Of a DNA stretch of 64,000 nucleotides, positions 446 through 16,559 are shown in pieces. The stretch comes from a virus. A program made the translations under genes and the position numbers. The notes beneath the pieces were generated by a model. The model was not told the DNA's origin. It saw only the letters and a program-made list of their open reading frames with translations, and made no database searches. Positions within the stretch are counted from its first letter, which is position 1; every line of letters starts with the position of its first letter. The stretch is taken from the IMG/VR virus record IMGVR_UViG_3300037467_001050, positions 32,001 to 96,000 of that record; one strand, 5' to 3'.

Positions 446-745
446 GGGGGTGCCTTCCATAGGTTGCCCGCCGCTCCGGTTGCGTGCCGGTCGGACGGTC
501 GCCGGACGGTGCCGGTCGGACGGGTGAGGGGAGGGGCGCTTTCCACCTATGGGTGGAAGCGGTCACATGCCGGACTGCCGACATGACAAAGCCACCCGTT
601 GGGTGCGCGTGGTGCGCCGGGTGGCTTGGCGATGTGGGCGAGGCTTTCCACCCTAGGGTGGAAGAAACCAGGAAAACGGACAGCCGAAAGCCCCCGGAGG
701 ATTACCCTCCGGAGGGATCAGGCCAGATTGTGAGGCGCGCGTCGG

Positions 746-1099
746 CTACCAGACAGAGACGGTCGCGACACGCTGGCAAGCGCGAGACGGATCCGGCATG
801 ATGCCGGGAAGGGTATAGGGCTCATCCGCCCCGCAATCGTGCCAGACCGTGACCCTTTCGCCAGTCTCGGCAACGTGGCGCTTAGCGGCGGAAATGGCGC
901 ACCTATCATCGCCGGACAGGTATCCGCCGGTGAAACCGGACACGCAAACCGATCCCGCCATAAGGGCGCGCGCGTCGGCCATTTCCACCTGAATTGACCG
1001 GACGCGACCGCCGGCATTGCACCGGCGATAGGCCTTGATGTCCCATAGCAGGCTGGCGCGGCATTGGCGGTACAGGGCAAGGCGACTAGCTGCGGACAT
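746..1099 (-). CDS. hypothetical protein
   Basis: 117-aa ORF with GGAG RBS, same strand as neighbours. Confidence 0.5.
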   Translation of the reverse strand: MSAASRLALYRQCRASLLWDIKAYRRCNAGGRVRSIQVEMADARALMAGSVCVSGFTGGYLSGDDRCAISAAKRHVAETGERVTVWHDCGADEPYTLPGIMPDPSRACQRVATVSVW

Positions 1100-3567: not shown

Positions 3568-3885
3568 ATGACCCTGCAGACCCCTGAGGAGGAGCGCGCT
3601 GAGCTGGCGCGCATCGAGCGCGAAATGGACGAAGCAGAGGCTGCCATCTTCGCGGAGCTACGACGCATCCGGCAGGAGGAAGACACTGCCCGAGAGGCCG
3701 CAGAGCAGCTGAAACCCCGCTACCGCTGCGATGAGTGCGGGCACGTCTGCCAGGAGCGCCACATGGAGAGCGACGAGGTGTTCAACGACTGGGATGAGGC
3801 GTGGTCCAGCCACATCTGCCCCAACTGCAAGTTTTGGCACGACGGGCTTCGCCCGGGAGAAGGATGGACGAGGGTCGAGCCGTGA
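3568..3885 (+). CDS. Zn-ribbon protein
   Basis: CDEC and CPNC motifs after a coiled-coil N-terminus. Confidence 0.65.
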   Translation: MTLQTPEEERAELARIEREMDEAEAAIFAELRRIRQEEDTAREAAEQLKPRYRCDECGHVCQERHMESDEVFNDWDEAWSSHICPNCKFWHDGLRPGEGWTRVEP

Positions 3886-4145
3886 CCGCGCCCCGCAAGA
3901 TGATCGTCGCCTCCAGCCGGAGGTGGGCTCAGAACATCCGAGACAGCCTCGAGCTCGATCCGTCCGAGTGGGATGCCTTCGGCATAGGCGAGGGCCTGCC
4001 GGCCCGTCCCTACGACAAGATCCTGGTCTTCGCCGACCAGCTGGGCATCCGCCGCACGGAGACCGAGGTCGAGCATCAGCGCGCCTACATCAACATCAAC
4101 CTGCGCAACCGGCTCGCCGATGGCGGTGTCCTGAAGCTCCTCTGA
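3882..4145 (+). CDS. small alpha/beta protein, paralog A
   Basis: GTGA overlap; resembles 6177 and 7547 proteins by eye. Confidence 0.65.
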   Translation: MTAPRKMIVASSRRWAQNIRDSLELDPSEWDAFGIGEGLPARPYDKILVFADQLGIRRTETEVEHQRAYININLRNRLADGGVLKLL

Positions 4146-11353: not shown

Positions 11354-12892
11354 ATGGCTCAAACTGCAAATCCCGGCCTGTTCTCGGCTGCCTCCGCCTC
11401 GATGTCGGCACGGCGCGCGCTGATGCGCGCGGTCTACGGCGGCACAGAGACCCTGCGCGCCGCACGGGAAACCTACCTGCCGCGCTACGAGAACGAGAGC
11501 CCGACCCGCTACGAGACCCGGCTCGCCGCTGCCACGTCGCTGAACAAGCTCAGGGAGGCCGTCGACGCGGCTTCCGCGAAGCCGTTCAAGACGATGATCA
11601 AGTTGATCAACAACACCGACGCCGATCTCGATCAGTGGGTCCGTGACATCGATCTGACCGGCAACCATCTGCACATCTTCGCCCACCAGCACTTCAACGA
11701 CTCGCTGCTGATGGGGCAGGGGCACATCCTGGTGGATCACCCGACCACCTCGAACATGCCGAACCTCGGCGCTCAGCTCGCCTCAGGCGTTCGGCCGTTC
11801 ATGAAGTACATCCGCGACGACGACCTGCGCGCGGCCTACAGCGAGAACGTCGGCGGCGACATCCAGGTGACGCACGTCCGCATCTTCTCGACCCGCGTGG
11901 AGCGCGAGCCCGGCACCTTCAAGGAGAAGGTCTGGAACCAGATCTACGTGATCGAGAAGGAGGTCGGCGCCAACGCGGGCGTCGTGCAGGTCTGGGAGCA
12001 GGACGCGCAGGCCGGCGGCGACAGCTGGGATCTCATCTCCGAGAGCCCGCTCACCATGCCGGAAGTGCCGTTCGTGACGCTCTACGCGGGCGAGAAGGAG
12101 GGCGACTTCATCACCCGCCCGATCTTCCTCGACTTGGCGCACAAACAGGTGGAGCACTACCAGAGCTCGGCCGACCAGCGCTCGATCCTGTCCGCGGCGC
12201 GCTTCCCCATGCTCGCCGCCTCCGGCATTGAGTTCGACGAGGAGGAGATCTCGAAGTTCACGGTCGGCCCCTACAAGGCGCTGTTCTCCCCCGATCCGCA
12301 GGGCCGCTACTACTACGTCGAGCCGGCCGGACGGGCGATCAAGTCTGGCGCGGACGACCTCGCCGCCATGGAAATCCAGATGGACATGATGTCCCTCAAT
12401 CCCGTGGTCGGCACGCACCGGCAGTACGTGCCCGCCAACGAGCGCGACATCGCCGAGACGCGGGTGCATTCGGTGGTCCACGATCTGGCGCTGTCCGAGA
12501 AGGACGCGCTGGAGCGCGCGATCGGCTTCATGGGCACCTGGGTCAACCGGGACTTCTCGAACGTGGGCGTCGGCCTCAACTCCGACTTCACGAACACGAA
12601 GGACAAGATGATCCAGATGGGCGTCTTGTTGAACGCCTTCACCTCGAAGGCGATCTCGCTCGAGACCTTCCTGGAGCAGGCGCGCCGCCTCGATCTCGTG
12701 GACGACGAGTTCGACGTGAACGCCGAGGTCCAGCGGCTGGCCGCCGCCAACGCGGCGCTCGCGGACGAGGAGGATCCCAACGTCGACAACACCGGCCCGG
12801 TCGCCGGCTCGGCCTCCGACCCGGTACGTGCTTCGACCACGGCCCCGGTGGACTTCCCGAACGGCCGGACCCGCCCTAGATCTCAGATCTGA
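11354..12892 (+). CDS. portal protein (DUF4055-like)
   Basis: Follows terL; 512 aa; YLPRYENE...RYETRL pattern. Confidence 0.85.
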   Translation: MAQTANPGLFSAASASMSARRALMRAVYGGTETLRAARETYLPRYENESPTRYETRLAAATSLNKLREAVDAASAKPFKTMIKLINNTDADLDQWVRDIDLTGNHLHIFAHQHFNDSLLMGQGHILVDHPTTSNMPNLGAQLASGVRPFMKYIRDDDLRAAYSENVGGDIQVTHVRIFSTRVEREPGTFKEKVWNQIYVIEKEVGANAGVVQVWEQDAQAGGDSWDLISESPLTMPEVPFVTLYAGEKEGDFITRPIFLDLAHKQVEHYQSSADQRSILSAARFPMLAASGIEFDEEEISKFTVGPYKALFSPDPQGRYYYVEPAGRAIKSGADDLAAMEIQMDMMSLNPVVGTHRQYVPANERDIAETRVHSVVHDLALSEKDALERAIGFMGTWVNRDFSNVGVGLNSDFTNTKDKMIQMGVLLNAFTSKAISLETFLEQARRLDLVDDEFDVNAEVQRLAAANAALADEEDPNVDNTGPVAGSASDPVRASTTAPVDFPNGRTRPRSQI

Positions 12893-13489: not shown

Positions 13490-13581
13490 TGGAGCGTAGC
13501 TCAGTTGGTTAGAGCGCTGGCTTACCCCCGGTCTAACGGGGACGCCGGAGGCCACAGGTTCGAGCCCTGTCGCACCATCCA
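13490..13581 (+). ncRNA. tRNA-like RNA, Asp-type body with a 15-nt hairpin insertion in the anticodon loop
   Basis: D arm GCTC/GAGC, stem CTGGC/GCCGG, T arm ACAGG-TTCGAGC-CCTGT, TCCA end, 22-nt loop. Confidence 0.8.
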
Positions 13582-14349: not shown

Positions 14350-14464
14350 TCGCCAGACGAGAACGAGATCGGCCGGCCCGCGTGGCCGGCCCACAATCAT
14401 GCTCTACCCCAGAGCGCATTCCCTACGGGCACCAGCCCTGAAAAACGTTGACGCCCCAGGTTAG

Positions 14465-14642
14465 GCCTACCACCCCCTTCGAGGGGGAACTCGAGCCCTC
14501 GTATGCGGCTCGAGTGGCGGTACTATGGTCGGATTAAGTAGGCGGGGAATTGCGAGGCAAGGAAGGTGGCGAGAGCCCCGGGTTCCGGTGCGAAAGCACG
14601 ACTGGACCGGCCAGACCGACGGGTCGCAAATGGGTGCCAATT
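14465..14642 (+). ncRNA. candidate structured ncRNA with two multibranch domains
   Basis: Several 4-8 bp stems, GAGA and GAAA tetraloops, TTGACG upstream at 14448. Confidence 0.6.
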
Positions 14643-14649
14643 CGAGATC

Positions 14650-14738
14650 GACGACGTGGTGGCTGAGAGGCTGAAGGCACCACAGAAATGGGGCACGGCC
14701 TGCGGGTCGTCGGGGGTTCAAATCCCTCCCACGTCGTC
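14650..14738 (+). ncRNA. type II tRNA-like RNA with truncated anticodon arm, 10-bp acceptor helix and no adjacent CCA
   Basis: GACGACGTGG/CCACGTCGTC; D arm; variable arm ACGGCC/GGTCGT; T arm GGGGG-TTCAAAT-CCCTC. Confidence 0.7.
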
Positions 14739-14747
14739 GTTTCCATG

Positions 14748-14824
14748 CCCGGTGTAGCTCAGTCTGGTAGAGCATGTGGTTCATGCCCACGGAGCCGCTG
14801 GTTCAAATCCAGCCACCGGCACCA
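14748..14824 (+). tRNA. tRNA(CAT), atypical (C1-C72 mismatch, G37)
   Basis: Cloverleaf, TGTGG-TT CAT GC-CCACG, ACCA end; identity (Met, fMet or Ile2) unresolved. Confidence 0.8.
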
Positions 14825-14941
14825 ACTTTCGAGGCGTGGACCCCTCGGGACCTCTCCGGTCCTAAGGCCTCGATCCCACCACGGTCGTGCTCGAACCGTG
14901 GTCCCTGCGCATGCGGGATACGATGAAGGGAAGGGGTGTCC

Positions 14942-15051
14942 GGGAGGGCATGAGGGCGGAGAGCCCCATCGGGCGCGTCGAGCTGAGCGTGCTCAGCTTC
15001 ACCGGCCCGATGCCTTTTGGCTTGGCGGTGAAAATCCAGCCCCTCCCACCA
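14942..15051 (+). ncRNA. 110-nt tRNA-like RNA with a long extended central arm
   Basis: GGGAGGG/CCCTCCC plus ACCA; GGGC/GCCC; ATCGGGC/GCCCGAT capped by AGCTGAG-CGTG-CTCAGCT; GGTGAAAATCC T-loop-like end. Confidence 0.6.
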
Positions 15052-15387: not shown

Positions 15388-15578
15388 GGCTCATTCAATC
15401 CCCATCGCGCTCCCGGCTCATCCCCGGTTGAGCGCGATCGCGACGGCCCCAGCCTGCAGCATCCCCGGCACAAGACGGGCAGGGATACCAAAGAGCGCGC
15501 CCCCGCACCTCGCGCCGCCGTCCATCGATCGCGAACCGGCTCCAAGACCGCGTCGCGTCGGCCCATAGGCCGCCACTG

Positions 15579-15608
15579 AGCCCCGGCTTCGCGCCGGGGC
15601 TTTTTTCT
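15579..15608 (+). terminator. intrinsic terminator before the scaffold gene
   Basis: AGCCCCGGC/GCCGGGGCT followed by a T run. Confidence 0.8.
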
Positions 15609-15626: not shown

Positions 15627-16559
15627 ATGCCTGATCGTATTTCCGGGATGGAAATGGCACTTCACGCAATTGTCACCGACATCAATACTGTTCCCGAAGC
15701 ACTCCGCACCGAATACACCGAGAAGGACGGGAAGTTCTTCCTCAATGTAGAGCCGGTCGACGGGTTCAAGCTCGAGAACGTGGATGGGCTCGTCAACGCC
15801 CTGAGCGCCGAGCGCACCCTCAAGGACCGAGCCGAAGCTGCTCTCAAGCAGTTCAAGGACATCGATCCGAAGACCGCGCGCTCCGCCATCGAGGCGATCA
15901 CCGCCTACGGTGACCTCACCCCGCAGCAGGTCCAGGCCCTCCAAGAGGAGGTCGCCAATCTGCGCGCCATCGACCCGACCAAGGAAGCCGGCAAGCTCGC
16001 CGAGGCCCAGGTCAGCGCTGCGGTCGCCGCCGCCAAGGCTGAAGCCGAGCGCGTGTTCGGCACCGAGAAGACCACGCTCGCAGAGCAGCTCAACGGCCTC
16101 ACGGCGCTCAACGAGGGCCTGAAGGGTCAGCTCAAGGATCTGCTCGTCGGCAATCAGGTGAAGGCGGAAATCGCCCGCCTGAAGGTCGTGCCCGGCCTCG
16201 AGCCGGCCGCCGAGATGCTCGCCTCCCAGTCGATCCGCACGGTCGAGAAGGACAACGCCTTCCAGGTCGTGGTCATCGACAAGGACGGCAACCCGCGCAT
16301 GAAGCTCGGCGAGAACAACTCGCTCGTGCCGTTCACGGTCACGGACCTGATGGACGAGCTCAAGAAGACCACCCCCGGCCTCTTCCAGGCGGAAGACAAG
16401 GGCGGTGTTGGCATCCAGCCCGGGCGTCACGCTCCGGGCACCGGGGGCATCTCGAACCCCTGGTCGAAGGAGGCCTGGAACCAGACGGAGCAAGCCAAGC
16501 TCCGGCTCTCGAACCCCACCCTAGCCGCTCAGCTCAAGGCCCAGGCCGGCGTCTCCTGA
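15627..16559 (+). CDS. capsid scaffold protein (start may be 15648 or 15654)
   Basis: Directly before the capsid gene; coiled-coil; NPWSKE...NQTEQ tail. Confidence 0.8.
   Translation: MPDRISGMEMALHAIVTDINTVPEALRTEYTEKDGKFFLNVEPVDGFKLENVDGLVNALSAERTLKDRAEAALKQFKDIDPKTARSAIEAITAYGDLTPQQVQALQEEVANLRAIDPTKEAGKLAEAQVSAAVAAAKAEAERVFGTEKTTLAEQLNGLTALNEGLKGQLKDLLVGNQVKAEIARLKVVPGLEPAAEMLASQSIRTVEKDNAFQVVVIDKDGNPRMKLGENNSLVPFTVTDLMDELKKTTPGLFQAEDKGGVGIQPGRHAPGTGGISNPWSKEAWNQTEQAKLRLSNPTLAAQLKAQAGVS

Follow-up and report, generated by a model that had tools for sequence, protein, structure and literature searches.

A candidate structured noncoding RNA of no known family in the tRNA island of a large phage

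GOLLD and ROOL are structured noncoding RNAs of unknown function that are often found in prophages and beside tRNA genes (PMC5737381). The element described here, which lies in a window of 64,000 nucleotides (the whole stretch of DNA that was analyzed) from a 122,894-bp IMG/VR record of a soil phage, resembles GOLLD (RF01998) and ROOL (RF03087) in combining a conserved core with variable arms and in its place beside phage tRNAs. However, GOLLD and ROOL are 500-800 nt long, contain many multistem junctions and are widespread, whereas the element has about 200-210 nt, is found in three lineages and matches neither model. An earlier note on this DNA had already drawn the comparison, which holds for the genomic setting but does not extend to similarity of sequence or model. 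YrlA RNAs (RF02553) are, like the element, of about 100-200 nt, occur in bacteria and phages and are built around tRNA-like parts; one copy of the element even carries a T-arm-like hairpin and a closed stem in the order typical of YrlA. A word of 10-11 nt in its most conserved block is identical to one strand of loop E/helix IV in host-type 5S rRNA (RF00001). With the tRNA genes and tRNA look-alikes of its own island, the element shares the strand, probably the transcription unit, and a sporadic distribution among related phages, but it lacks both a cloverleaf and an acceptor end, and the tRNA model gives no score over 14443-14650.

In the window, the genes for the portal (11354-12892, PHROG 145) and the scaffold protein (15627-16559, PHROG 206) flank the element; the interval between them also holds tRNA-Trp, tRNA-Met and a Tyr-type tRNA together with several tRNA-shaped genes with abnormal anticodon arms. 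A strong terminator-like hairpin stands at the end of the island (15578-15602), no sigma-70-like promoter was found by consensus before the element, and the island is probably one transcript. The neighboring ORFs gave no match in Pfam or PHROG. Since the nearest portal relatives are found in prophages of Bradyrhizobium and Methylobacterium, the host of the phage is most likely a member of the Hyphomicrobiales. A packaging RNA (pRNA), an idea based only on the position beside the portal, was rejected: relatives hold ordinary tRNAs at this place and Rfam, pRNA included, returned no match.

Several other features of the island deserve description. The tRNA-Ser look-alike that adjoins the element (Table 1) has a D arm and a long variable arm, while its anticodon arm consists of a short GAAA-capped stem and has no anticodon; 23 nt stand here against 13 anticodon-arm positions in the Rfam tRNA model, and the acceptor helix can be extended to 11 bp. 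The tRNA gene at 13490-13581, called Val(TAC) by ARAGORN, is 92 nt long and scores 52 bits with the Rfam tRNA model, with about 20 nt against the 5 anticodon-loop positions of that model. ARAGORN also called a tRNA-Ala(GGC) of 98 nt within the scaffold-protein ORF (16434-16531, minus strand), which has no Rfam tRNA match and is probably a false call. Finally, a G+C-rich hairpin (GGCCGGCCCGCGTGGCCGGCC, 14369-14394) follows a 189-codon ORF. It is 96% identical to a stretch that precedes the RNA by over 1 kb in a related contig (L263, see below), hence it is best regarded as a repeated hairpin element and not as part of the RNA.

The search for homologs started from an alignment of portal proteins, which led to related portals at 76 viral and 9 genomic loci. 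Only one of these loci, L018, a prophage of Methylobacterium sp. WL120, was matched by nhmmer and fuzzy matching; the nhmmer match is weak and lies at the same distance behind the portal gene as in the window, and the L018 sequence has long words identical to it. An exact-word scan of IMG/VR using the words common to the window and L018 retrieved a third copy, L110, on a 118-kb soil contig, and one metagenome scan added L263, a 152-kb soil contig of the same lineage as L110. The 22-mer pattern of block B (blocks are defined in Table 1) occurs once in the JGI metagenome collection, in L263. Block A was found beside block B in the IMG/VR exact-word scans only in L110 and L115 (the latter being the IMG/VR locus of L018), and among the 39 IMG/VR loci with a 14-mer of block B, only 2, both portal-related, hold block A too. 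Otherwise, the IMG/VR word scans (block A, block B and a relaxed block B) gave only chance matches in coding DNA. When up to 3 or 2 mismatches to block B were allowed, 401 + 201 (= 602) Hyphomicrobiales genomes gave chance-level matches or none, and no copy of the element is present in the 50,697 records of cultured phages in INPHARED.

The portals of the L018 and L110/L263 lineages are 53-58% identical to that of the window. In all of them, the element occupies the same position, in a tRNA island that is preceded by the portal gene and by small ORFs, and on the tRNA strand; most relatives with tRNAs at the same site do not carry it. Judged from these three independent lineages (window, L018 and L110/L263), the family is real and very rare. 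The carriers would form a clade of large (~120 kb) phages and prophages of Hyphomicrobiales, with hosts of the Methylobacterium/Bradyrhizobium type.

According to a block alignment, the order of the conserved blocks, A-B-C-D, is fixed in the three lineages (Table 1), and the spacing between them differs by 0-62 nt through hairpin-shaped inserts. The number of hairpins that separate blocks A and B is zero in L018 and two in the window, and rises to three in L110, where the insert includes one T-arm-like hairpin (GGGGUUCGACUCCCC) followed by a UUCG-capped stem. The C-D interval contains a lineage-specific set of two or three hairpins in each lineage; those of the window are exchanged for different ones in L018 and L110, only the GAGA-capped hairpin recurring (in L110). 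The flanks of the element have diverged beyond recognition between lineages, whereas the blocks are identical, and the conserved letters fall mostly in regions drawn as unpaired. Between the window and L263, the tRNA-Met genes adjoining the element show only 68% identity; set against the near-identical blocks, this indicates that the core of the element is more strictly conserved than a tRNA gene. By this sequence comparison, the core blocks are under strong purifying selection. Conservation in the relatives also moves the borders of the unit outward, to approximately 14443-14652. The limits given in the earlier note were too narrow, block A beginning before 14465, and the joining regions, which are the truly conserved parts, had gone unmentioned there.

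Table 1. Features of the RNA element and of the gene adjoining its 3' end (coordinates in the window)
Feature	Coordinates	Strand	Remarks
5' lead AAACGUUGAC	14443..14452	+	5/10 columns invariant among three sequences; probable 5' border of conserved unit
Block A GCCCCAGGUUAGGC	14453..14466	+	14/14 invariant in three lineages
P2 5' strand GCCUAC	14465..14470	+	pairs with 14538-14543; closes domain 1
Variable insert V1, two hairpins	14473..14514	+	CCCCC-UUCGA-GGGGG 14473-14487; CUCGAGCC...GGCUCGAG 14490-14514
Block B GGCGGUACUAUGGUCGGAUUAAGUAG	14516..14541	+	22/26 invariant; most conserved stretch; in loop closed by P2
P2 3' strand GUAGGC	14538..14543	+	P2 within MFE of window's domain 1
Domain-2 closure, 5' side	14547..14563	+	GAAUU 14547-14551; GGCA 14556-14559; stretch includes block C
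Block C CGAGGCAAGGA	14553-14563	+	4/11 invariant
Variable insert V2, three hairpins	14568..14625	+	GGC-GAGA-GCC 14568-14577; GAAA-capped 14581-14608; GACC-GACG-GGUC 14614-14625
Block D AAAUGGGUG	14628..14636	+	7/9 invariant
Domain-2 closure, 3' strands	UGCC 14635-14638, AAUUC 14639-14643	+	in block D/3' block region
3' block CCAAUUCGAGAUCGAC	14637..14652	+	8/18 columns invariant; abuts tRNA-Ser-like gene
tRNA-Ser-like gene	14652..14738	+	ARAGORN 'tRNA-???'; Rfam tRNA 36.7 bits; outside RNA element, adjoins its 3' end

Every helix named in the earlier note can be read in the sequence, and the observation is confirmed. Besides P2 and the hairpins of Table 1 (GGC-GAGA-GCC, GACC-GACG-GGTC), these include CCCCC(T)/(A)GGGGG (14473-14478/14482-14487), an 8-bp stem CTCGAGCC/GGCTCGAG (14490-14497/14507-14514), GTGC-GAAA-GCAC (14588-14599) and, closing domain 2, AATT plus GGCA with TGCC plus AATT (the AATT strands at 14548-14551 and 14639-14642). 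However, the internal hairpins that had been stressed (CCCCC/GGGGG, the 8-bp stem and the GNRA-capped arms) are decorations particular to one lineage; the relatives lack them or have others instead. Nor does the stability of the fold stand out, with a minimum free energy (MFE) over 14455-14650 of -76.0 kcal/mol vs -76.06 +/- 4.6 in 200 dinucleotide shuffles (z = 0.01). Stems of this kind are expected by chance in G+C-rich DNA, so the named helices carry no weight on their own; it is conservation in the relatives, and not the helices, that raises the region above chance.

The pairing with the best comparative evidence is P2, the closing stem of domain 1. GCCUAC/GUAGGC in the window becomes CGCUAC/GUAGCG in L018 through double changes at two pairs, and CGCGAC/GUCGUG in L110, where the 3' strand is shifted by 3 nt and a G-U pair is included; G-U pairs are compatible with the plus strand only. 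P2 can thus be said to covary, on a comparison of three sequences in which the invariant blocks are uninformative on pairing. In the MFE structure of the window's domain 1, P2 is extended by CCCC (14454-14457) pairing with GGGG (14544-14547), leaving AGGUUAG as an asymmetric internal loop. Covariation of the domain-2 closure is partly supported: the outer part changes from GAAUU/AAUUC in the window to GGAUC/GUUCC in L018 (both letters altered in two pairs, and one mismatch), and the inner part from GGCA/UGCC to AGCA/UGUU in L110.

Other pairings compete with these. Block B could pair through UCGGA with the 3' block and through CUAU with AUGG of block D (AUAG in L110), CGCCC of block A with GGGUG of block D, and an invariant mini-hairpin inside block B (UACU/AGUA) competes with P2. 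MAFFT and RNAalifold on the raw sequences misaligned block A, and a block-anchored alignment was used instead; on it, RNAalifold prefers an 8-bp helix with two bulges between blocks A and B (CCCCAGGU/ACUAUGGUCGG), which is invariant in the three sequences and either excludes P2 or forms a knot with it. Several of the competing pairings would form pseudoknots with P2. The fold presented here is therefore a working model, since several mutually exclusive or pseudoknotted pairings fit equally well.

The region is noncoding, in agreement with the earlier note, which had seen no plausible ORF. No ORF is conserved on either strand in the three lineages. The 49-codon ATG frame of the window, which starts inside block B, shrinks to 3 codons in L018 and to 9 in L110; the long antisense frames have in common only the 9 residues encoded by block B, and the lengths of the inserts differ by non-multiples of three. 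The hexamer TTGACG that had been pointed out upstream is present (14447-14452), but it reads GTGACG in L018 and GATGAT in L110 and lacks a -10 partner.

The 4,227 models of Rfam 15 were searched at the gathering score, at E <= 10 on 3.6 kb, and on 221 bases alone. Over 14443-14650, there was no match at the gathering score or at E <= 10 on 3.6 kb, and the best scores with the 221 bases alone were 12.4 bits (Guanidine-I, gathering 63) and 11.4 bits. No Rfam family matched the L018 and L110 copies, L018 giving only chance-level scores of at most 13 bits. With ARAGORN, and likewise with the Rfam models for tRNA and tmRNA, no call falls in 14443-14650. The statement that no family could be assigned thus stands, and conservation and some covariation support the proposal that the tRNA strand carries a noncoding element resembling a structured RNA; the reading of the element as an unassigned structured RNA is, overall, partly supported.

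We consider, with moderate confidence, that 14443-14652 (+) encodes a structured noncoding RNA that is new and rare, is processed out of the tRNA-island transcript and acts in trans. The RNA would be transcribed together with the island as a single precursor ending at the terminator, its 3' end would be freed by RNase P at the abutting tRNA or tRNA look-alike, and it would then act in trans. The invariant letters predicted to be unpaired, AGGUUAG (bulge), GGUACUAUGGUCGGA (domain-1 loop) and AAAUGGGUG (domain 2), may build a compact, probably pseudoknotted core able to bind a host or phage factor. Considering that its neighbors are tRNAs and tRNA look-alikes with disabled anticodon arms, our best guess is that it serves as a binding or decoy RNA on the translation or RNA-metabolism machinery of the host during infection. 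A search for partners and targets found no similarity to the element, beyond common coding words, in two related host genomes, and antisense matches of at least 10 nt in three phage genomes were limited to the opposite strand of the element itself. Genes for ProQ and RtcB are found in the phage of the window only, being absent from G004, which also carries the RNA. The ORFs common to the carriers and missing in two non-carriers have no RNA-related Pfam domain, and no co-occurring partner gene was found among the carriers.

The 3' side of the element abuts the Ser-type tRNA look-alike in the window and a normal tRNA-Gln (53 bits) in L018. A cut by RNase P at the 5' end of the tRNA would make the 3' end of the RNA, and hence the tRNA-Ser-like gene is likely to act as its signal. 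In L018, the letters homologous to the 3' block of the window, UCCGAGAUCG, are positions 1-10 of the tRNA-Gln; the mature 3' end may lie before them, in which case the cut would remove the strand needed for the outer closure of domain 2. In L110/L263, the RNA is followed by a 43-codon ORF and not by a tRNA, so this way of forming the 3' end cannot apply in general. The product of this ORF, which directly follows the RNA (L110 1395-1524 / L263 1395-1524, minus strand), is hydrophobic, and its Shine-Dalgarno-like AAGGGA is within the conserved 3' block of the RNA in this lineage. A tRNA-like 3' half (CTGGTTCGATACCAG then ...ACCA) that was not called is located just upstream of the RNA copy in L018 (7690-7720).

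Such an arrangement could also mean that the element is a cis-acting part of the tRNA precursor, a spacer or leader for folding, processing order or stability with no life after processing. Its direct neighbor is a tRNA-like gene in the window and a tRNA in L018, where the conserved 3' block overlaps the tRNA-Gln itself, and the absence of a promoter-like site before it and the single terminator closing the island fit this possibility as well. However, the ORF found in place of a tRNA in L110/L263, the change of the following tRNA between lineages (Ser-like vs Gln) and the many relatives that have tRNAs at the site without the element speak against it, and invariant blocks of 14 and 22 nt far exceed what known tRNA spacers keep. 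We consider a purely cis-acting role improbable, although not negligibly so.

It seems unlikely that the invariant blocks constitute a self-contained pseudoknotted active site, i.e., a new small ribozyme or high-affinity aptamer acting on the tRNAs or look-alikes of the island. Such an RNA would cut, join or capture tRNAs or look-alikes, or capture a host factor that attacks tRNAs and, if this were true, it would open a new functional class of phage RNAs. We give a similarly low probability to the absence of any functional RNA, the region being instead a site acting at the DNA level (protein binding or a recombination hot spot) or decaying remains of tRNA-type genes spread by recent exchange between phages. 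The thermodynamic signal is nil, the family is tiny, and the island, rich in odd tRNA-like pieces, is known as a hot spot of insertion, all in keeping with such an origin. Nevertheless, the blocks are identical between flanks that have lost all resemblance, and hairpin-shaped changes of spacing of 0-62 nt, together with compensatory stem pairs, fit neither a DNA site nor neutral decay.

The resemblance to 5S rRNA would suggest a much-altered derivative or partial mimic of the host 5S rRNA, taken from the end of an rrn operon and keeping one loop E/helix IV strand. Alphaproteobacterial rrn operons end with 5S-tRNA-fMet, and a tRNA with a CAT anticodon lies within ~200 nt downstream in the window and L110. 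The word GGTACTATGG (10-11 nt) of block B equals the 5' strand of loop E/helix IV in the 5S rRNA of Bradyrhizobium and of a Methylobacteriaceae genome and, in L018, GAGGGTAGGT matches GAGAGTAGGT further on in 5S rRNA, in the same order. However, the complementary strand and the three-way junction are missing, the 5S covariance model did not match the element in three phage records (G000, G003, G004; E <= 10) or in the 221-base search, and end-to-end (glocal) alignments were not significant (z = 0.8-2.7 vs shuffles). The nominal p of the shared word is 0.006-0.25 per comparison (shuffles reach it 6-250 times in 1,000), a post hoc value obtained after several host RNAs had been compared. We regard this origin as quite unlikely and keep the likeness as a weak lead.

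It is very unlikely that the element cuts the island transcript as a self-cleaving or self-splicing ribozyme. A core of high conservation, surrounded by variable hairpins and possibly pseudoknotted, would suit such a ribozyme, and the transcript that hosts it must be cut many times, but none of the ribozyme and group I or group II intron families of Rfam matches the element, joining its flanks yields neither a tRNA nor an ORF, and no conserved context for a cleavage site was seen.

The least credible alternative, a Y RNA-like (YrlA-type) RNA tethering the host Ro/Rsr protein through a tRNA-like module, draws on the YrlA consensus order of the L110 insert and on a Bradyrhizobium genome (G002) with rsr and two adjacent YrlA-like RNAs, but we consider it highly implausible: the YrlA model misses the element in the window, L018 and L110 and matches only neighboring tRNAs (the T arm of the adjoining tRNA-like gene with 25.4 bits, and tRNAs of L264 with 20.4 bits), L018 has no tRNA-like module and the window a different one, TROVE (PF05731), and with it rsr, is absent from the phages G000, G003 and G004 and from the Methylobacteriaceae genome G001, and blocks A-D bear no likeness to a Ro-binding stem or to the stems of the Bradyrhizobium Y RNAs. 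The latter are an observation in their own right: in G002:C7 (L316 2443-2800), a TROVE (Rsr/Ro) gene is accompanied by two tandem YrlA-like RNAs scoring 45 and 42 bits (gathering 69), which are probably genuine but divergent Y RNAs.

The islands of these phages contain further RNAs of unusual type. A second conserved noncoding stretch is found right after the tRNA-Met in the window (14823-14944) and in L263 (1085-1206, minus strand), with 87% identity over 124 nt and compensatory changes in the hairpin CCACGGU...ACCGUGG; it has no Rfam match. Its 17-mer TTCGAGGCGTGGACCCC is also present in three other IMG/VR contigs (L305, L306 and L307), and L306 additionally carries a permuted (two-piece type) tmRNA gene on the reverse strand (3787-4145), with the tag ANDNVAVALSA. 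The island of L263 has about 650 nt of noncoding sequence with tRNA-like RNAs, including two (690-900, minus strand) with acceptor-type closing stems and T-arm-like hairpins that end in CACCA or GCACC, neither of which is called by ARAGORN.

Phage tRNA clusters are now viewed as weapons against host enzymes that cut tRNAs. To its tRNA cluster, the clade described here adds several look-alikes with sealed anticodon arms and at least two conserved RNAs of no known family. Were the element only a processing spacer, it would be of minor interest. The small size of the element and its extremely conserved core make it tractable for probing, pull-downs and structure work, and the carrier prophage of Methylobacterium WL120 should be open to genetics. 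If our preferred reading of a stable trans-acting RNA is right, the element would join GOLLD and ROOL, as a new and small case, among the orphan structured RNAs that accompany phage tRNAs.
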